The notes under the pieces: model-generated
Seen by the model: the letters and a program-made list of their open reading frames with translations, nothing else
Database searches by the model: none
Told to the model about the DNA's origin: nothing
Made by a program: the position numbers and the translations under genes
Part shown: positions 3,991 to 51,679 of the stretch, in pieces
Layout: each line of letters opens with the position of its first letter
Position numbering within the stretch: position 1 is the first letter of the stretch
Source: Candidatus Deferrimicrobiaceae bacterium
GTDB lineage: Bacteria; Methylomirabilota; Methylomirabilia; Rokubacteriales; CSP1-6
NCBI GenBank assembly: GCA_035463855.1
Contig: DATHSW010000003.1
Span: 1,892 to 65,891, forward strand
Direction of reading: 5' to 3'
DNA: 64,000 nucleotides

Positions 3991-4986
3991 ATGGCCAAGC
4001 TGCTCGAGGGCAGGACCGCGCTGGTGACGGGCGCGGGCCGCGGCATCGGCCGCGGCATCGCGATCGCGCTGGCCAAGGCCGGCGCCAAGGTGGTGGTCAA
4101 CGACCTGGGCGCGGGCCTGGACGGCGAAGGGGTGGCCACCGGACCGGCCGCCCAGGTGGTGGACGAGATCGTCAAGGCGGGCGGCACCGCCGCGCCCAAC
4201 TACGGCTCGGTGGCCGACTACAAGCAGGCCAACGAGATGGTGGACCAGGTCGTGAAGACCTACGGCCGGATCGACATCCTCGTCAACGTGGCCGGCATCC
4301 TGCGCGACCGCATGATCTTCAACATGACCAAGGAAGAGTGGGACGCGGTGCTGGCCGTGCATCTCGACGGCACCTTCTTCTGCACGCGCGCGGCCTCGAT
4401 CCACATGCGCGAGCAGAAGTACGGGCGCATCGTCAGCATGTCGTCGGTCTCCGCGCTCGGCTCGCCCGGGCAGCCCAACTACGGCGCGGCCAAGGCCGGC
4501 ATCATCGGCCTCTCCTGGTCCACCGCCAACGGGATGGCCAAGTACAACGTCACGTCGAACGCGATCCTGCCGAGCGGGGCCACCAGAATGATCGACTCCA
4601 CCCCGCGCGGCCGGCAGATCTTCGAGCAGACCGGGAAATGGCCGAGCGAGCAGGCCATCGGCACCGAGCGCGATCCCGACAACGTGGCCCCGCTCGTCGT
4701 CTACCTGGCCAGCGAGGGCGCCGGTCACGTCAACGGGCAGGTCTTCCACTCCTTCGGCTACGGCTACACCCTGATGGCCCTGCCCGAGCCCATCCGCCGC
4801 ATCGAAGCGGACCGAAGGCTCGAGCCCGAGGAGCTGGCCAAGCTGTTCCCGGACACGCTCGGTCGGAGCCTCCACGAGCCGCCCGGCACCAACTTCGGCA
4901 AGAGCCTCAACGAGCGGCCCAAGCAGGAGTGGAAGGATCTCGGCAAGGGCGTGCGGTACTGGCAGTCGCCCTGGGAGGCGCGTTGA
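3991..4986 (+). CDS. SDR family oxidoreductase with C-terminal extension
   Basis: TGAGRGIGRGIA glycine motif, NVAG, and S...YGAAKAG catalytic tetrad region; 331 aa. Confidence 0.9.
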   Translation: MAKLLEGRTALVTGAGRGIGRGIAIALAKAGAKVVVNDLGAGLDGEGVATGPAAQVVDEIVKAGGTAAPNYGSVADYKQANEMVDQVVKTYGRIDILVNVAGILRDRMIFNMTKEEWDAVLAVHLDGTFFCTRAASIHMREQKYGRIVSMSSVSALGSPGQPNYGAAKAGIIGLSWSTANGMAKYNVTSNAILPSGATRMIDSTPRGRQIFEQTGKWPSEQAIGTERDPDNVAPLVVYLASEGAGHVNGQVFHSFGYGYTLMALPEPIRRIEADRRLEPEELAKLFPDTLGRSLHEPPGTNFGKSLNERPKQEWKDLGKGVRYWQSPWEAR

Positions 4987-5483
4987 CCAACGTCCTGCTG
5001 GTCTGTCATGCCAACACCTGCCGCAGCGTGATGGCCCACGTCCTCCTGGAGAAGATGCTGATCGCGCGGCGCCGAGAGACCGCGGTGCGCGTCCGCTCGG
5101 GCGGCATCGCCAACCACGCCCGCGACGGGATGATCCCCTCGCTCGACGCGCGCATCGTGCTGCGCGAGGACGACATCCACCTGGCCGAGGATGCGTTCGC
5201 CTCCACCGACCTCCGCCGCCATCGCGACATCGTGGCCGAGGCGCACCTGATCGTGACCATGACCGCGCAGCAAAAGGAGATGATCGGCGCCTACGAGGAA
5301 GCGCGGGGGCGGCTGATCCTGACGCTGCACGAGCTGGCCGGCGAAGCGGGCGACGTCGACGACCCGTTCGGCCAGGGCGAGGACCGCTACCGCGCGACCC
5401 GCGACGAGATCAAGCGCTGCCTCGAGCTGGGCGTGGACCGGATGCTGACCTTGCTGCACGACCGGAAGGAGATCACCCGATGA
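4983..5483 (+). CDS. Low-molecular-weight phosphotyrosine phosphatase / ArsC-like family protein
   Basis: LTNVLLVCHANTCRSVMA contains the CX5R(S) P-loop, and DDPFG lies near the C-terminus. TTG 4983 overlaps the SDR stop (TTGA); GGGAGG lies 6 nt upstream. Confidence 0.8.
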   Translation: MTNVLLVCHANTCRSVMAHVLLEKMLIARRRETAVRVRSGGIANHARDGMIPSLDARIVLREDDIHLAEDAFASTDLRRHRDIVAEAHLIVTMTAQQKEMIGAYEEARGRLILTLHELAGEAGDVDDPFGQGEDRYRATRDEIKRCLELGVDRMLTLLHDRKEITR

Positions 5484-6010
5484 ACCAAGACGAGCAGATC
5501 CTCTACGACCCCACCGCCGAGCCCCGGATCCTGGCGACCGGCCTGGCGCCCCGCCTGGCGAGCCTCGAGGGCAAGCGCGCGGGCATCCTCGACAACAGCA
5601 AGGCCAACGCGGGCACCCTGATGCTGGCGGTGGTCGCGCGCCTCAAGGAGAAGTACGGCGTCCGCGACGTCGTCAAGCGCGAGAAGGGCATCGCGGGCGC
5701 GCCCAGCCCCGACATCCTGGCCGCGCTCACGACGTGCGACTTCGTCCTGGTCGGCAGCGCCGACTGAGGGTCGTGCACGTCGTGGAGTATCCACGGCGCC
5801 ATCGTGCTGGAGCAGCGGGGGATCCCCACCGTGGTCATGGGGACGTATGAGTTCGAGCAGCTGGCGAAGCTCGAGGCGAAGAACCGCGGGCTCGCCGACC
5901 TGCCCCTGGCCCTGATCCCCCACCCGCTGGGGGGCATCCGCGAGGACGAGGTCAGAAAGAAGGCGGAGCTGGTGGTCGAGATCGTCCGGAAAGCCGTCAC
6001 CCGCGCATGA
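5480..6010 (+). CDS. UGSC-family selenoprotein (in-frame UGA 5765-5767 read as Sec; track splits it into 5480..5767 and 5804..6010)
   Basis: Both ORFs are in the same frame. Read-through gives ...FVLVGSAD-U-GSCTSWSIHGAIVLEQRGIPTVV. ATGA overlaps occur at both ends (5480/5483 and 6007/6010), and a hairpin follows the UGA. Confidence 0.7.
5778..5798 (+). promoter_or_regulatory. Candidate bacterial SECIS hairpin
   Basis: CGTCGTGG-AGTAT-CCACGGCG: 8-bp stem (one G-U) with a 5-nt loop carrying G at position 2. The stem starts 10 nt after the UGA and the loop starts 21 nt from the U of UGA. Confidence 0.45.
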
Positions 6011-7098
6011 GCACGCTGGGGCCGGTCGCGCGGACACTCCGGATTCGCGGCGGCTACGCCGCGATCTTTCGGCACTACCAGGACCAGGGCTGGACGGATG
6101 GGCTGCCGATCGTGCCGCCCACCGAGGACGATCTGCGCGAGTTCCTGCGCTTCACCGACCGCGCCCCCCGTGAAGTCGTGGCGGTGCTGCCGCCGCGCCA
6201 GGGCGAGGCCACGGTGGAGCGCATCGCGATCAACGCGATCATGGCGGGCTGCCGGCCGGAATGTCTTCCGATCGTCATCACCGCGGTCGAGGCGTTGGCC
6301 GATCCCGCCTTCAACCTCGACTCGATCCAGGCCACCACGCACCCGGTGGCCCCGCTCATCATCGTCAACGGGCCGATCGCGAAGGAGGTCGGCATCAACG
6401 CGGGCTACAACGCCTTCGGCCAGGGCTTCCGCGCCAACCTCACGATCGGGCGCGCGATCCGGCTCCTGCTCATGAACGTGGGCGGCGGCCTGCCCGGCAC
6501 CGGCGACCGCGCCACCCAGGGCAGCCCGGCCAAGATCGCCTACTGCGTGGCCGAGAACGAGGAGGCGAATCCGTGGGAGCCGCTGCACGTCGAGCACGGC
6601 TTCCCGGCCGACACGAGCCTGGTCACCGCGATCGCGTGCGAGGGCCCGCACAATATCCAGGACCACTTCAGCTACACCGGGCTCGGCATCCTGAAGGTGA
6701 TCGCGGGCGCCATGGGCCAGGCGGGCAGCAACAACATCCTGGCCGGTGGGCATCCGCTGCTCTGCCTCGGGCCGGAGCACGCGGCCACCATCGCGCGCGA
6801 CGGCTTCACCAAGCGGCAGGTCAAGGAGTTCCTGGTCGAGCACGCGCGCTTCCCGCTCGCCCGGCTGGGCGACGAGTACCGCGCCCATCTCATCCAGCGC
6901 GGGGCCAGGGACGCGCCCGACACCATGATACCGGCGGTGCGCTCGGTCGACGACGTGAGCGTGATCGTGGTGGGCGGCGCGGGCAAGCACTCCTGCTGGC
7001 AGCCGACCTTCGGGGACCAGACCGGGCCGGCAAGGCGGCCGATCGCGAGGAAGGACGGCACGCCGCTGAGGACGGTCGCCGAGCTAGCCGACCGCTAA
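6007..7098 (+). CDS. Conserved hypothetical protein (363 aa), translationally coupled to the UGSC gene
   Basis: Long ORF with coding-like composition and an ATGA overlap with the upstream gene; no domain recognised by eye. Confidence 0.8.
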   Translation: MSTLGPVARTLRIRGGYAAIFRHYQDQGWTDGLPIVPPTEDDLREFLRFTDRAPREVVAVLPPRQGEATVERIAINAIMAGCRPECLPIVITAVEALADPAFNLDSIQATTHPVAPLIIVNGPIAKEVGINAGYNAFGQGFRANLTIGRAIRLLLMNVGGGLPGTGDRATQGSPAKIAYCVAENEEANPWEPLHVEHGFPADTSLVTAIACEGPHNIQDHFSYTGLGILKVIAGAMGQAGSNNILAGGHPLLCLGPEHAATIARDGFTKRQVKEFLVEHARFPLARLGDEYRAHLIQRGARDAPDTMIPAVRSVDDVSVIVVGGAGKHSCWQPTFGDQTGPARRPIARKDGTPLRTVAELADR

Positions 7099-30147: not shown

Positions 30148-30690
30148 ATGGCCCGCCTCGAGATCCTCCCGCCCGACGCGATCGCCGATCCCGAGCTGCG
30201 CCGGATGGCCGAGGCCTCCGGCGACGAGATGTACGGGGTGTACGGCCACTGCCCCGAGCTCTTCGCGGCCTTCCTGCGCTTCTACCGGCCGACCAAGTAT
30301 GGCGGCCGGCTGCCCTTCGCGCTGAAGGAGCTGGTGCGGCTCAAGATCGCCGCGCTCAACGAATGCACCCGCTGAGCCACCGCGCGCGAGCCCTCGGAGA
30401 GGGCGCCGGGGCTGTACGTCGAGCTGTTGCCGAAGCTCCGCGGGGAAACGGAGGCGACGGAGCGTGAGCGCGCCGCCCTCCGGTTCGCCGAGACGCTCGC
30501 CACCTCTCACACCACGATCGACGACGCGTTCATGACCGAGATGCGCAGGCACTACACCGACGCCGAGCTGGTGGAGCTGGGGTTGATCACCGGCGCCTTC
30601 ATCATGCTCGGGCGGCTGCACCGCACCTTCGGGGTGGCCCCGATGGGCCCCCGGAGTCACGCGGTCCTCCAACGGGGGTACCACCCATGA
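30148..30690 (+). CDS. Carboxymuconolactone decarboxylase (CMD/AhpD-like) family selenoprotein candidate (UGA 30373-30375 read as Sec)
   Basis: Track ORFs 30148..30375 and 30427..30690 share a frame. Read-through gives KIAALNEC-T-R-U-ATARE..., placing U at the second Cys position of the family's CxxC motif. The second half (ERERAALRFAETLA...ELVELGLITGAF) is typical CMD C-terminal sequence. ATGA overlap with the next gene. Confidence 0.65.
30390..30404 (+). promoter_or_regulatory. Candidate SECIS-like hairpin (weak)
   Basis: GCCCTC-GGA-GAGGGC: 6-bp stem with a G-rich loop; the loop starts 23 nt from the U of UGA. Confidence 0.3.
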
Positions 30691-39280: not shown

Positions 39281-39465
39281 GGCCTCCCCCTGGTCGGACC
39301 TGGTCTGGTCACGGGTGGACATCCCCATGACTACCAGCTAGTCGTCTGCCGCCGCCCTGGATCGACAAGTCCAGCCACGGGGCCAAGCCGCGACAGAGCG
39401 CCCTCACGAAGCCCAAGGACTCCTCGAACCCACGAAGCTCGTCCCTTTGCCTCTGGAGCAGCAGA

Positions 39466-40284
39466 CTAGCGGCATGGCGACACAACTCCCTGAACGGCCC
39501 ATGCCCGAGCGGTCAGCTCGATCGGCCCGTCTGGCGTCGATGCCAGACGCGACATGAGGCACAGCCGGATTCGTTCGCGTACGTCCCCATCCACCGACGC
39601 CAGATAGGTCGGGGCAGCGCCGGTCCTGCCAAGGAACGGCATCCAGTAGTCGTCGAAGTCCTTGAAAACCGTTGGAATCTCGATGGCGCGAACCGTCACG
39701 GACCTGAGCCCCATCCGCTCGAACAATGCCTGGAGCGGCCCGGGCTGGCAAAGAGGGAATCGTTCGGCCTGGTCGAGCTTCGCGTCATCGGGGCTCACTG
39801 CGACGGCTGCATCCCAGAAGTGCCGCATCATCTGCATTCCGCCGGCATAGTCCCAGACGTACGCCGCTACCGACCCGCCCGGCCTTGTCACCCTCGCCAT
39901 CTCTCGCACCATGGAATCGTGATCCCGCACGAAGTTGAGGACCAGGCCGGAGACCGTCACGTCGCAGACGGCCGACTCCCACGGCAAGTGAGTCGCGTCT
40001 CCGGTTTCAAAGCGGGCCCGCGGGTCGCTGATGCGCTCCCGCGCCCGGGACACGAAGCCCTCCGACGAGTCGATGCCGGTGACCGATGACGGCTCACCCA
40101 GCGTGAGGATCGCGGATGCCAATGCCCCCGTACCGCAGCCGACGTCCGCCCAGGCGAGGCCCGGACGAGGTGCGAGCCAGCGAAGGAACGCGGTCGCGAC
40201 CGTCCGGCTCCAACGCCCAACGTACTGCTCGTAGGCATCGCCAGAGTCCCAGGCCTCTGCCACGAAGACCGTCACGGCCACCAC
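39466..40284 (-). CDS. Class I SAM-dependent methyltransferase
   Basis: ADVGCGTGALA motif I and VTRPGGSVAAYVWD motif. Confidence 0.85.
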   Translation of the reverse strand: MVAVTVFVAEAWDSGDAYEQYVGRWSRTVATAFLRWLAPRPGLAWADVGCGTGALASAILTLGEPSSVTGIDSSEGFVSRARERISDPRARFETGDATHLPWESAVCDVTVSGLVLNFVRDHDSMVREMARVTRPGGSVAAYVWDYAGGMQMMRHFWDAAVAVSPDDAKLDQAERFPLCQPGPLQALFERMGLRSVTVRAIEIPTVFKDFDDYWMPFLGRTGAAPTYLASVDGDVRERIRLCLMSRLASTPDGPIELTARAWAVQGVVSPCR

Positions 40285-40565
40285 CGACGATGCGCTTCGA
40301 CGTCATCACCGAATCCAGCCCAGACCAGCACGTCGCGCCAGTCGATGTTTGCATGCTCGACGATGGAACGAAGCTCTCCGAGATCACCGCGGCTGAGCTT
40401 CAGCGCCGCGAAGCGAATACGCTCGGCGGACTCTGAAGTCGCTGATTCGCAGAACGGGAGATTCGCTCCACAGTCTTCCTCAAGAAGGCGGATCGCCGCC
40501 TCCTGTTCGTCCGAGGAGAACAACGCGCGGACTCGAGCCGTCGTCGGGTCACTCAATCTCAGCAT
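40272..40565 (-). CDS. Hypothetical protein (97 aa)
   Basis: ORF with plausible start ATG 40565; overlaps the methyltransferase start by 13 nt; no domain recognised. Confidence 0.4.
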   Translation of the reverse strand: MLRLSDPTTARVRALFSSDEQEAAIRLLEEDCGANLPFCESATSESAERIRFAALKLSRGDLGELRSIVEHANIDWRDVLVWAGFGDDVEAHRRWWP

Positions 40566-40732
40566 GCCAGTGTGCTTGCCAGCTAGACAGTATGACTTCC
40601 ACGAGGTGAGGCTGACCCCCAGCGCTCTTCGCGGGTTAGCCTGGAGGGGCCAGAGCCGCCTGGTGCGCAGGGCACCCAACGAACGTGAAGGTCAGCCATG
40701 GACGAGTGTAGCAAGACCCTGTATGTCGGGCT

Positions 40733-41055
40733 CGGTATCGGCAGTTGACCGCCCGCGGCAAGTACGTCAACCAGGTCGTCGTGGCGATCGCCCGCGAAAT
40801 GGCTGCCTTCGCCTGGGCCATCGCGCGTCTCGTCCCGCGGGCCGCCTGACGGGCGGGCCCACGAAGGAAGACGGAGTGCAGAGCCCGTGATCCCGACCTC
40901 GAGCCCTCGGCGGAGGCGCGGCCCCGGTATCGGCGCAATCTTCGATCGCGTTATGAGGCCACGACCCTCGTCCCTAGAGCGAAGTAGGCGCCGCGACGGA
41001 CACCTGTACGGTGGTAGCCAACCCTCGGATATCAGCATGATCAACCGTCGCCCCT
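40733..41055 (+). pseudogene. 3'-terminal remnant of an IS110-family transposase gene
   Basis: RYRQLTARGKYVNQVVVAIAREMAAFAWAIARLV resembles the conserved C-terminal IS110 segment. A second frame gives ...GGSQPSDISMINRR, a tail seen in IS110-type proteins. No N-terminal catalytic part is present. Confidence 0.5.
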
Positions 41056-41508
41056 TACAGGCCCCGTTTCTGCCGTGGCTGGAGCCACAACCCCCAATTG
41101 ACCCGCAGGAACATGAACAACACCCGCACTCCGACGGTCACCGTCGCTCTTGACGGTGGAAGTCATATCAACGCTCGCGCTCAGCGGCGCCGCGATGACG
41201 CCTACGAAGCACGTTGCGAGTTGAGCCACACACCAACGCAACGATCGCGACGGCGGTACAGGGCCTCCAGAGAACTTGGGAAGCGCAAATCCCACGATCG
41301 CGAACACGGGCGCAGAAATCCCGGGAAAAACGACAGTGAGATGAAAGGATCGTCATCAGGCACGACACTCAGCTCCGTGAGCAGCAGAAGACCGATCACC
41401 GTCACCGCCAGCACGATGGAGATCCTTGACAGGATTCGTGCTAGTTGCGCCGCGAGGCCGAACATGACCATTGCGTGACCACAGCGCCTACGCGCGCCCA
41501 GGCTATGC

Positions 41509-41880
41509 TCATTTACTGCGGCTCTCCATGTGAAAGCTGTGGAGGATGCGATGCGCGACCGGCGCGAGAATGACGCCAGCGACGAGGATAACAGCCAAGC
41601 CGCAGTAAAGCGCATACAAGCCCGCAAAGAGCTTGCCGCCAAAGGTGATCGGTGTATTCACGGGGCCCATTCCGCCCAAAAGCATTGACGCGTTTAGGAA
41701 TGCATCAATCCAGCTCAGACCCTCAAGGATGTGATAGCCGACCATACCGACGAACAAGGAAACGACAATGACTGCGACCGCGATGATCCCGCTGTGGGCC
41801 AGCCGAATAATGAACTGGTGCGGAGGAATTACGGGCTGAGCGCGATGCTCAAACTCTGGGAGTACCCTTTTCACGGTCAC
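41509..41880 (-). CDS. Two-TM ion-channel-like membrane protein (degenerate K+-channel pore)
   Basis: TM1 - LSWIDAFLNASMLLGGMGPVNTPITFGGKLFAGLYAL - TM2 mirrors the pore-helix/filter/inner-helix layout, with LGGMGP in place of TVGYGD. Confidence 0.45.
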   Translation of the reverse strand: MTVKRVLPEFEHRAQPVIPPHQFIIRLAHSGIIAVAVIVVSLFVGMVGYHILEGLSWIDAFLNASMLLGGMGPVNTPITFGGKLFAGLYALYCGLAVILVAGVILAPVAHRILHSFHMESRSK

Positions 41881-42273
41881 CTAACGCACCGGATCAGCGG
41901 CGGCGCGCAGCGCCGACCGCTGCATTCGGAAGTTAGAGGGCGCGGCGGACTCACTCATCGCAAAGACCACCGCGTTGGCTACCTGTGAGGCGATCGTCGC
42001 GCTCGTAGCTTTGGTATCAAGAATGCCGAACTTGCGGCTCAACGCGATGAGCGCGATGAGCACAACGGTCATGACCATGCCAAAGAGCGCTTGAAAGACT
42101 TCATGGTCTTGTTGTGCGAGAGCTAGGGCGACGACCACTGCGATTACGAGACTGAGAACAATCGCCACGACTTGCTCGAAGCGCTCGTACAGTGACATGA
42201 GCGGCCATTGCTGACGTGTTTCCGCCAAAAGCCTTCGGGAGACGCCGGACTTGGTTGCCATGTGTCGATCCAT
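41881..42273 (-). CDS. Small membrane protein (PsiE-like?)
   Basis: LYERFEQVVAIVLSLVIAVVVALALA plus a second hydrophobic segment; weak resemblance only. Confidence 0.4.
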   Translation of the reverse strand: MDRHMATKSGVSRRLLAETRQQWPLMSLYERFEQVVAIVLSLVIAVVVALALAQQDHEVFQALFGMVMTVVLIALIALSRKFGILDTKATSATIASQVANAVVFAMSESAAPSNFRMQRSALRAAADPVR

Positions 42274-42613
42274 TTCTGCTTGGCGCTCTAACTAGAACCA
42301 TCCAGGTCCAGATAACGCGGGATGGACCGGGGCCTGGTCAGGCTAATCCGGCTGGCCGGATTCACGGCGGGATCGGGGGAGCGGCCTTGTAAGAGGCGTG
42401 TTTGGCGCATGGTCCGGTGACGCCCCTCCGATGTTACACAGACCTGGATACTTTCGGGTAGAGGTGCTGATGCCGGCCGGCTCTCGCGGGTATTCAAGCG
42501 GGTGGGTGGCCGGGGGGCCTCTCCGCCGCCGAGTTCGCCGCTTTCCGCTATCATAGGGCGCCCTGGCGGGCTTCGGGCCGGGCGCTCTATCCTCCGCAGT
42601 CGAAGGAGCCGGT

Positions 42614-50485: not shown

Positions 50486-51679
50486 ATGCGCACGCTCACG
50501 CAAGTAGCGGCGATCACCGTCATGAACCTGCGCAACCTGCCGTCGCGGGTTGGCACCTCGCTGGTGGTGATCGTTGGCATCGCCGGCGTCGTCGGCGTGC
50601 TGGTCTCGGTGCTCGCGATGTCGGAGGGGTTTCGCCACACGCTGGCCAGCACCGGGCGTGGTGACCGCGTGATCATGCTGCGGGCCGGCTCCGACGCGGA
50701 GCTCTCGAGCGGCGTCGCGCGCGACCAGGCCACTCTCCTGGCCGCCCTGCCCGGGGTGGGGCGCGACGCGGCGGGCCGGCCGCTCGCCAGCGCGGAGCTG
50801 GTGGTCATGGTGGATCTGCCCCGCAAGGGCGAGCGCCATCCCAACAACGTGCCGTTCCGCGGCGTGCAGCGCGCCGCCTTCGACATTCGAGACGAGGTGC
50901 GGCTCGTGGAGGGGCGCCACTTCGAGCCCGGCGTCCGCGAGGTCGTGGTGGGACGCAAGGCCGCGGCCCAGTTCGCCGGGCTCGCGGTCGGCTAGCGCAT
51001 CGGCTTCCGCGACAGCGACTGGACGGTGGTGGGGATCTTCGAGAGCGGCGGCGACGTGCACGAGTCGGAGATCTGGGCCGACGCCGAGGTGGCCATGTCC
51101 GCGTTCCGCCGCACCGGCTACCAGTCGGTGACGGCGCGGCTCGCCGACGGCTCGGACGCGGGCCTCGCCGCCTTCCGGGACTCGGTCGGCCGCGATCGCC
51201 GCTTCTCGATCAGCGTGCTGCGCGAGCCCGAGTACTACGCCAAGCAGGCCACCGTGCTGTCCGATCTCATCAACGTGCTCGGCTACACGGTGGCCGCCTT
51301 CATGGCGGTGGGCGCCACCTTCGGCGCGCTCAACTGCATGTACTCGGCGATCGCCAGCCGGCAGGTCGAGATCGCCACCCTGCGCGCGATCGGCTTCGGA
51401 GGCGCGCCGGTGGTGGTCTCGGTGATGATCGAGGCGCTGCTCCTGTCCCTGCTGGGCGGGGCGGTGGGTGGGGCCCTGGCCTACGTCTACTGCGACGGCG
51501 CCACGCTCTCCACGCTCAACTTCAACACCTTCTCGCAAGTGGCCTTCGACTTCCGGGTGACGCCGGGGCTGCTGCTCCGCGGGCTCACCTGGGCGCTCGT
51601 CATCGGACTCGCCGGCGGGCTGCTCCCCGCCGTGCGCGCGGCCCGCATCCCGGTCACCGAGGCGCTGCGGACGTTATAG
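50486..51679 (+). pseudogene. Second FtsX/MacB-type permease interrupted by an in-frame TAG (50993-50995)
   Basis: Track ORFs 50486..50995 and 51026..51679 share a frame. Sequence across the stop reads ...FAGLAVG*RIGFRDSDWTVVGIFESGG, a continuous conserved permease motif. Confidence 0.7.

Follow-up and report, generated by a model that had tools for sequence, protein, structure and literature searches.

The window analysed here, a stretch of 64,000 nucleotides from contig DATHSW010000003.1 of a Candidatus Deferrimicrobiaceae bacterium, carries on its forward strand a pair of open reading frames (ORFs) that the initial annotation had interpreted as probably one gene for a selenoprotein with the motif U-G-S-C. 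As can be read directly from the sequence, ORF 5480..5767 is closed by a TGA at 5765-5767, and ORF 5804..6010 follows in the same frame after 12 sense codons (5768-5803). Beyond the TGA the frame stays open until a second TGA at 6008-6010, which yields a product of 176 residues. If the UGA is read as selenocysteine (Sec, U), the peptide at the junction is ...DFVLVGSAD-U-GSC-TSWSIHGAIVLEQRGIPTVVMG... (in its fuller stretch VGSAD-U-GSC-TSWSIHG), and the proposed signature is indeed present, encoded by TGA-GGG-TCG-TGC at 5765-5776. The locus comprises the following features, some of which concern a selenocysteine insertion sequence (SECIS) or the ratio of nonsynonymous to synonymous substitution rates (dN/dS):

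4983..5483, + strand: LMWPc/ArsC-like gene (Pfam LMWPc, 2.8e-16), with a TTG start that overlaps the stop codon of an SDR gene
5464..5471, + strand: Shine-Dalgarno sequence GGAAGGAG, 8 nt before ATG 5480, read from the sequence
5480..6010, + strand: predicted UGSC-family selenoprotein gene, 176 residues with Sec as residue 96 (Pfam and NCBIfam matches, dN/dS)
5765..5767, + strand: in-frame UGA predicted to be read as selenocysteine, the first residue of U-G-S-C (comparison of TGA and Cys codons in this column)
5774..5776, + strand: Cys codon of U-x-x-C, the putative resolving cysteine (TGC invariant in the 30 Rokubacteria copies analysed)
5774..5797, + strand: block of eight codons without synonymous variation in the 30 Rokubacteria copies
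5778..5798, + strand: candidate bacterial SECIS-type hairpin with stem 5778-5786/5790-5798 and triloop G5787 U5788 A5789 (folding, bacterial SECIS constraints)
6007..7098, + strand: partner gene for a 363-aa protein of an uncharacterised family, with a start that overlaps the UGSC stop codon (ATGA)

The composite gene is joined to its neighbors by ATGA overlaps at both ends, at 5480-5483 with the stop codon of the LMWPc-like gene and at 6007-6010 with the start of the 363-aa ORF. The initial annotation had concluded from these overlaps that the operon only makes sense if ribosomes pass the UGA; the overlaps themselves are as described, and the argument drawn from them is suggestive without amounting to proof. 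The four genes between 3991 and 7098 (+ strand) form a chain of 4-nt overlaps in the order SDR, TTGA, LMWPc-like, ATGA, UGSC, ATGA, partner, and an amidohydrolase gene ends 10 nt upstream of the SDR gene start.

To assign the product to a family, profile searches were run with Sec written as Cys. In this form the protein matches the Pfam family UGSC (PF24696) with 155.5 bits (E 1.9e-45; cutoff 25), as had been anticipated, and the alignment runs as one stretch across the TGA from profile position 3 to 171 of 172. The NCBIfam equivalog model NF041046, 'UGSC family (seleno)protein', aligns over positions 1-146 of 147 with 124 bits (E 4.7e-36; curated cutoff 125). Since a single Pfam alignment crosses the TGA and the GC content at third codon positions (GC3) is similarly high on both sides (1.00 upstream and 0.97 downstream, the strongest such split-ORF pair in the window), the arrangement goes beyond what chance would produce.

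We compared the motif column between the window and 79 related loci that were obtained by scanning one genome per species (80 copies in total). TGA occupies this column in 37 copies from three lineages, namely the window and 36 loci, of which 34 are Rokubacteria/Methylomirabilota contigs from metagenome-assembled genomes (MAGs) and two are Chloroflexota contigs (L035 and L060). The remaining 43 loci are more distant homologues (Binatia, Acidimicrobiia, other Actinomycetota, sphingomonads, Myxococcaceae and haloarchaeal plasmids) and carry TGC or TGT, so that the Cys of these homologues aligns with the TGA as expected. G-S-C follows the column in all 80 copies, and the protein alignment likewise shows the Cys of U-x-x-C throughout. 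By this sequence comparison, the 37 TGA and 43 TGC/TGT codons at one column are a classical Sec/Cys pair. The possibility that homologues simply terminate at this position does not hold biologically, as all 37 TGA copies keep the TGA together with the downstream peptide. Standard ORF callers split the gene nonetheless, as had been predicted: 92 of the 120 closest database relatives end at the residue just before U.

Some records of the family deviate from this picture. Three full-length relatives (P0001, P0002 and P0004) have Ser, Arg or Leu at the U position, encoded by codons one base away from TGA; all three are singletons on contigs of 1-2.5 kb, are probably errors or rare alleles, and probably rank high only because they escaped truncation. 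Frameshifts or fused gene calls near UGSC occur in L031, L034, P0007, P0019 and P0087, which stem from long-contig MFD assemblies, P0007 being the LMWPc-like protein joined to the N-terminal half of UGSC; these look like assembly indels. Furthermore, the UGSC proteins of seven contigs (L001, L004, L005, L007, L011, L025 and L030) are 75-97% identical to that of the window and cluster with the Rokubacteria/Methylomirabilota copies, and their contigs are labelled as Acidoferrum, Verrucomicrobiia, Limnocylindria, Chloroflexota, Dormiibacterota or Solirubrobacteraceae, which likely reflects mis-binning of the MAGs.

The coding constraint on either side of the TGA was determined by the Nei-Gojobori method in 30 ungapped Rokubacteria copies, in which the peptide after the TGA is conserved. 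The dN/dS ratio is 0.20 for the 76 codons after the TGA compared to 0.28 for the 85 codons before it, and 0.18 for the part beyond the hairpin. Selection downstream is hence at least as strong as upstream, which is incompatible with a pseudogene. The 12 linker codons at 5768-5803, whose coding conservation the initial annotation had proposed as a test, are under purifying selection with a dN of 0.007, and this excludes an untranslated linker. In the same region the synonymous changes are suppressed as well. The synonymous entropy drops to 0.00, the minimum of the gene, at codons +3 to +10 (5774-5797), while most of the gene ranges at about 0.5-1.0, and the synonymous rate dS over codons +1 to +12 is 0.062 compared to 0.49-0.74 elsewhere, which is 8- to 12-fold lower. 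A second, shallower synonymous dip (entropy about 0.24-0.3) lies at 5576-5605 (codons -63 to -54, ILDNSKANAG) in these 30 copies and may perhaps only reflect two-fold codons under strong bias.

The block without synonymous variation coincides with the hairpin that had been noted downstream of the UGA. This hairpin is present as described, with 5778-5785 pairing with 5791-5798 in an 8-bp stem around the loop AGUAU, and begins 10 nt after the UGA. In an alternative fold the stem gains an A-U closing pair and comprises 9 bp (5778-5786/5790-5798) with the loop GUA. The published model of the bacterial SECIS (bSECIS) specifies a loop of 3-9 nt, a stem of 4-16 bp, a distance between UGA and loop of 16-37 nt and a minimum free energy (MFE) of at most -7.5 kcal/mol (PMC13188914), and places a G within the first two loop positions (G, then G or U) (PMC13188914). 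With a 3-nt loop (GUA, in the pattern A-GUA-U), a 9-bp stem, a spacing of 19 nt and an MFE of -14, the hairpin agrees with all four constraints and is conserved in the orthologues, in line with the geometry proposed for it. In all three Sec lineages nt 23-25, with the U of the UGA as nt 1, form the triloop, which reads GUA, GUG or GUU; the stems differ between the lineages, including one swap of G-C to C-G. The Ser codon at position +7 is AGT in 37 of 37 Sec forms, and the 27 Cys forms with a Ser at this position all use AGC. AGT accounts for 1.5% of the Ser codons in the window, and its U completes the G-U of the apical loop. Taken at the sequence level, the synonymous constraint, the identity of the loop and its register show that the hairpin is under RNA-level constraint and support a function as RNA.

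The element is comparable to the SECIS of E. coli fdhF, whose determinants are G23/U24 and a stem-loop 11 nt from the UGA (PMC8659212). Both lie within the coding sequence, 10-11 nt past the UGA, and share a small apical loop with G23-U24. In contrast to the apical loop of the E. coli element, that of the window is a triloop, and its stem is largely favored by the peptide too; binding by SelB is a prediction. A scan of the window against Rfam returned no matches.

The window contains an independent second Sec-type gene, again a split pair of ORFs. It was found via a truncated Pfam match; a GC3-based scan for genes with in-frame TGA was too noisy at 70% GC.

30148..30690, + strand: second Sec-type gene, AhpD-like/CMD, with the motif C-T-R-U (CxxU) and TGA at 30373-30375 (alignment with CxxC homologues)

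Here, homologues have the second Cys of their CxxC motif opposite the TGA and remain similar up to the C-terminus, and close relatives of the product are truncated at the same codon. TIGR01926 and NF053654, 'YciW-related (seleno)protein', match across the TGA, both far below their cutoffs. The gene thus shares with the AhpD-like/CMD selenoproteins of the C-x-x-U type the position of the TGA at the second Cys and the CMD/AhpD-like homology on both sides, but it differs in its low scores (Pfam CMD 25.7 bits over profile positions 1-42 only; NF053654 34 bits against a cutoff of 310) and in an Arg instead of the usual His four residues after the motif. A hairpin with the triloop GGA at nt 24-26 past the UGA is present in this gene as well. 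According to a recent review, 63 selenoprotein genes are predicted in one Methylomirabilota MAG (PMC13188914), and Sec-type hydrogenases have been reported from Methylomirabilota. This literature on the phylum and the second Sec-type gene give indirect support to the use of Sec in this genome.

Several observations weigh against a Sec-encoding gene at 5480..6010. Neither selA, selB nor selD is among the approximately 50 ORFs of the 64-kb window annotated with Pfam, and ARAGORN detected no tRNA-Sec in the window or the 36 Sec-form loci; tRNA genes of any kind are absent from the window. The NF041046 score lies 1 bit under the curated cutoff, a shortfall within the effect of the substitution of U by C. 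The structural model discussed below is that of a relative and not of the window protein. The stability of the hairpin is not exceptional: with an MFE of -14.3 kcal/mol it reaches z = -0.97 relative to dinucleotide shuffles, 32 of 200 shuffles being as stable, and a second shuffling comparison gave a likewise non-significant z of -0.23. Moreover, Cys-form homologues, which need no SECIS, fold similarly in this region (mean -16.2 compared to -15.6 kcal/mol), since the T-S-W-S-V/I-H peptide is self-complementary in GC-rich codons (UCG-UGG with CAC-GA/GG). We therefore dropped the existence and energy of the hairpin as evidence for a SECIS, as both are unremarkable at 70% GC and do not differ between Sec and Cys forms. 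In addition, the E. coli element possesses a bulged U17 that the hairpin of the window does not have, and no experiment has shown selenium in any member of this clade.

The absence of Sec machinery from the window and the related loci would be consistent with a UGA that is read through mainly without Sec, by near-cognate decoding as Cys or Trp or by local reassignment, the machinery being absent or not expressed. Two close AhpD-like relatives with W at the TGA position also fit this explanation, albeit these may be gene calls made with an alternative code. Yet UGA is the commonest stop codon of the window and ends 28 of the 52 called ORFs, so that the codon is not reassigned; the SelB-type G23-U24 is fixed by a rare codon in the TGA forms only, and the phylum is reported to be rich in selenoproteins. 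We consider read-through of this kind very unlikely. A further explanation takes the output of standard ORF callers, which annotate 92 of the 120 closest relatives as fragments, at face value and posits two polypeptides, an N-terminal fragment of 95 residues that ends at the UGA and a second one of 68 residues made by re-initiation at GTG 5804, which would assemble non-covalently. However, a site comparable to the Shine-Dalgarno sequence GGAAGGAG is absent before GTG 5804, the mechanically assigned start; the low dN of the 12 codons between TGA and 5804, which include G-S-C, indicates that they are translated; the Cys forms are single chains; and in the predicted structure the break would fall at the active-site turn. 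This makes two separate polypeptides extremely unlikely. That the TGA arose by nonsense mutation or misassembly and marks a pseudogene, as the frameshifts in the related assemblies L031 and L034 and the proteins P0005, P0019 and P0087 and the database singletons with S, R or L at the U position might suggest, is barely conceivable given the same TGA in 37 independently assembled copies of three lineages, the downstream dN/dS of 0.20, the profile match to the end of the family and a partner gene coupled to the UGSC stop codon.

Hence, 5480..6010 is almost certainly one gene that encodes a 176-residue selenoprotein of the UGSC family. Sec insertion as such, SelB binding, redox chemistry and substrate are what we infer from the sequence data. 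Ribosomes would start at ATG 5480 behind the strong Shine-Dalgarno sequence, and the hairpin 5778-5798 with its apical-loop G23-U24 would recruit a SelB-type factor with Sec-tRNA(Sec) to the UGA at 5765-5767, where selenocysteine would be inserted in place of termination. Translation would then run to the TGA at 6008-6010, which overlaps the next start; this stop/start overlap at 6007-6010 suggests that UGSC and its partner are translationally coupled. The UGSC protein would most likely be the redox subunit of a two-part enzyme, of which the 363-aa protein would be the other part.

The link to this partner is apparent from both genomic context and gene fusions. A homologue of the partner adjoins UGSC on the same strand in each of the 76 loci that hold both genes, with UGSC preceding the partner in 53 loci and following it in 23, and with a median gap of -4 or -2 nt. 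The partner family comprises 5508 representative clusters among 1.84 billion representatives searched exhaustively, and a UGSC sequence is fused in 57 of the best 150 representatives of the family. Three types of fusion occur. The first consists of full UGSC-partner proteins of 528-586 aa, several with CGSC. Fusions of the second type (406-453 aa) start with the half of UGSC that follows the motif, as would result if gene callers had cut Sec-form fusions at the TGA. In the third type, of about 460 aa, the partner precedes UGSC and the sequence stops at UGSC profile position 92, just before U. In some fusions (P0406, P0367, P0373, P0475, P0494, P0408 and P0484) the C/U-G-S-C motif is degenerate or lost (e.g. 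DIGAAM or WSGVYT), and hence the domain probably has a structural role as well.

The 363-aa partner itself has no match in Pfam even at E <= 10, none in NCBIfam and none in sequence or profile searches of the PDB. Among 61 diverse partners, D31, N76, N103, R149, D167 and E183 are invariant, while Cys82 is shared by 58 and Cys180 by 59 of these proteins. The structural model of the partner has a mean predicted local distance difference test score (pLDDT) of 78 and a predicted template modelling score (pTM) of 0.81. Foldseek comparisons of this model yielded template modelling scores (TM) of 0.2-0.27 to class I fumarate hydratase and Toblerone-fold amide hydrolases, which is too weak for a fold assignment. 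Five members of the partner family are of double length (P0379, P0441, P0467, P0506 and P0412; 695-741 aa) with two to four matched stretches and may have arisen by tandem duplication of the partner domain; the two that were searched, P0379 and P0441, contain no Pfam domain.

Other neighbors are less constant. The upstream LMWPc-like, SDR and amidohydrolase genes are linked to UGSC only in the closest clade, the LMWPc-like gene occurring upstream only in L001-L013 and L030-L034. None of the recurrent neighbors of the Cys forms occurs in more than 10 of 66 loci; they are CoA-transferase III, acyl-CoA synthetase, enoyl-CoA hydratase, acyl-CoA dehydrogenase and Amidohydro_2. This list contains Pfam-verified neighbors only, as crude ORF clustering had produced one merged cluster and one antisense artefact.

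To gain insights into the fold of the UGSC protein, an AlphaFold2 model was computed for P0003, a Cys-containing relative with 73% identity, using nine homologues in the alignment. The model (pLDDT 87.6, pTM 0.83) shows an alternating beta-alpha fold, in which position 96, occupied by U or C, lies at the N-terminus of helix 97-112 directly after strand 88-92. Foldseek against the PDB returned flavodoxin-like or Rossmann-like proteins among the top 50 matches (FMN reductase, azoreductase, the CpaE receiver domain and a B12-binding domain) with TM of at most 0.50, and sequence and profile searches of the PDB gave no match for UGSC. The fold of the UGSC protein is hence predicted to be flavodoxin-like alpha/beta. 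A thioredoxin-like fold had been suggested for UGSC in 2008 (PMC2398784), but no thioredoxin-fold protein is among the Foldseek top 50, and we did not retain this assignment. The position of U-G-S-C at the N-terminus of a helix in the model would suit a selenol/thiol (selenenylsulfide) redox couple.

A possible functional parallel is offered by the B subunits of glycine and D-proline reductase (GrdB, TIGR01917, and PrdB), which share with UGSC a U-x-x-C motif and a second, larger protein. The NCBIfam model TIGR01917 (GrdB) weakly matches UGSC residues 85-173 at GrdB positions 336-417 (E 0.0047, 15.9 bits against a cutoff of 602), and this match covers the Sec-bearing C-terminal part. The Pfam model GRDB (PF07355) gave no match at E <= 10 in four UGSC family members, and GrdE and PrdA are without similarity to the UGSC partner. 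With one weak match that is not reproduced in Pfam, we do not assign homology to GrdB/PrdB and treat the resemblance as a lead and working analogy only. By analogy with these B subunits, the Sec or Cys of UGSC might act as a nucleophile or redox relay, and the recurrent neighbors suggest a substrate of the organic acid or acyl-CoA type. We thus tentatively propose, as a possibility for which the odds appear slightly below even, that the UGSC (seleno)protein does not act as a redox protein on its own but is one half of an undescribed, widespread two-part enzyme with the partner, in which Sec or Cys would serve as reductive nucleophile or redox relay on such a substrate.

Two further observations concern other parts of the window. 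A MacB-like ABC permease gene at 50486-51679 (+ strand; MacB_PCD followed by FtsX) is split by a single in-frame TAG at 50993-50995 (...FAGLAVG*RIGFRDSDW...), which may stem from a nonsense mutation or an assembly error, among other causes. At 39329-42613, about 3.3 kb, the crude GC3-based caller placed no gene, and this region, like the rest of the window, is without Rfam match.

Zhang and Gladyshev included the UGSC-containing protein among the selenoproteins of unknown function as early as 2007 (PMC1976440), and in 2008 UGSC, with 255 Sec and 21 Cys forms in the GOS data, ranked among the most abundant selenoprotein families of aquatic metagenomes (PMC2398784). The mentions of UGSC that we found in the literature are confined to surveys. 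The gene described here shares with the family (PF24696, NF041046; reference ABI76733.1 from Hyphomonas neptunium) the full-length match, the U/C-G-S-C column, the occurrence of Sec and Cys forms and the length of about 175 aa; nothing essential differs, apart from the flavodoxin-like fold predicted here as opposed to the thioredoxin-like fold suggested in 2008. The gene is therefore a member of an already known family, and its identification is correct but ordinary and would not surprise a specialist. The analysis of this locus adds a corrected gene model, a further selenoprotein gene within the window and an example in which a SECIS can be separated from a peptide-driven hairpin. The comparison of Sec and Cys forms also calls for caution: the encoded peptide can by itself give rise to a hairpin downstream of a UGA, and the informative signals are the identity of the loop and the suppression of synonymous change.

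The adjacency to and fusion with the partner, which define a two-protein unit, are new and well supported. A fusion of UGSC with a conserved domain termed 'Unknown_1' has been described (PMC2398784); this domain may be the partner. While the UGSC literature knows an occasional fusion, the link to the partner is near-universal in the loci compared here. UGSC always stands beside one uncharacterised protein, in either order and usually with overlapping stop and start codons, and is often fused to it, in Sec and Cys forms alike. Since the gene is routinely recorded in fragments in this clade, the selenoproteomes of Rokubacteria/Methylomirabilota are larger than current counts suggest, and catalogues lack the half of the protein with the active site. 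The recognition of a two-protein unit makes the function of UGSC experimentally approachable.

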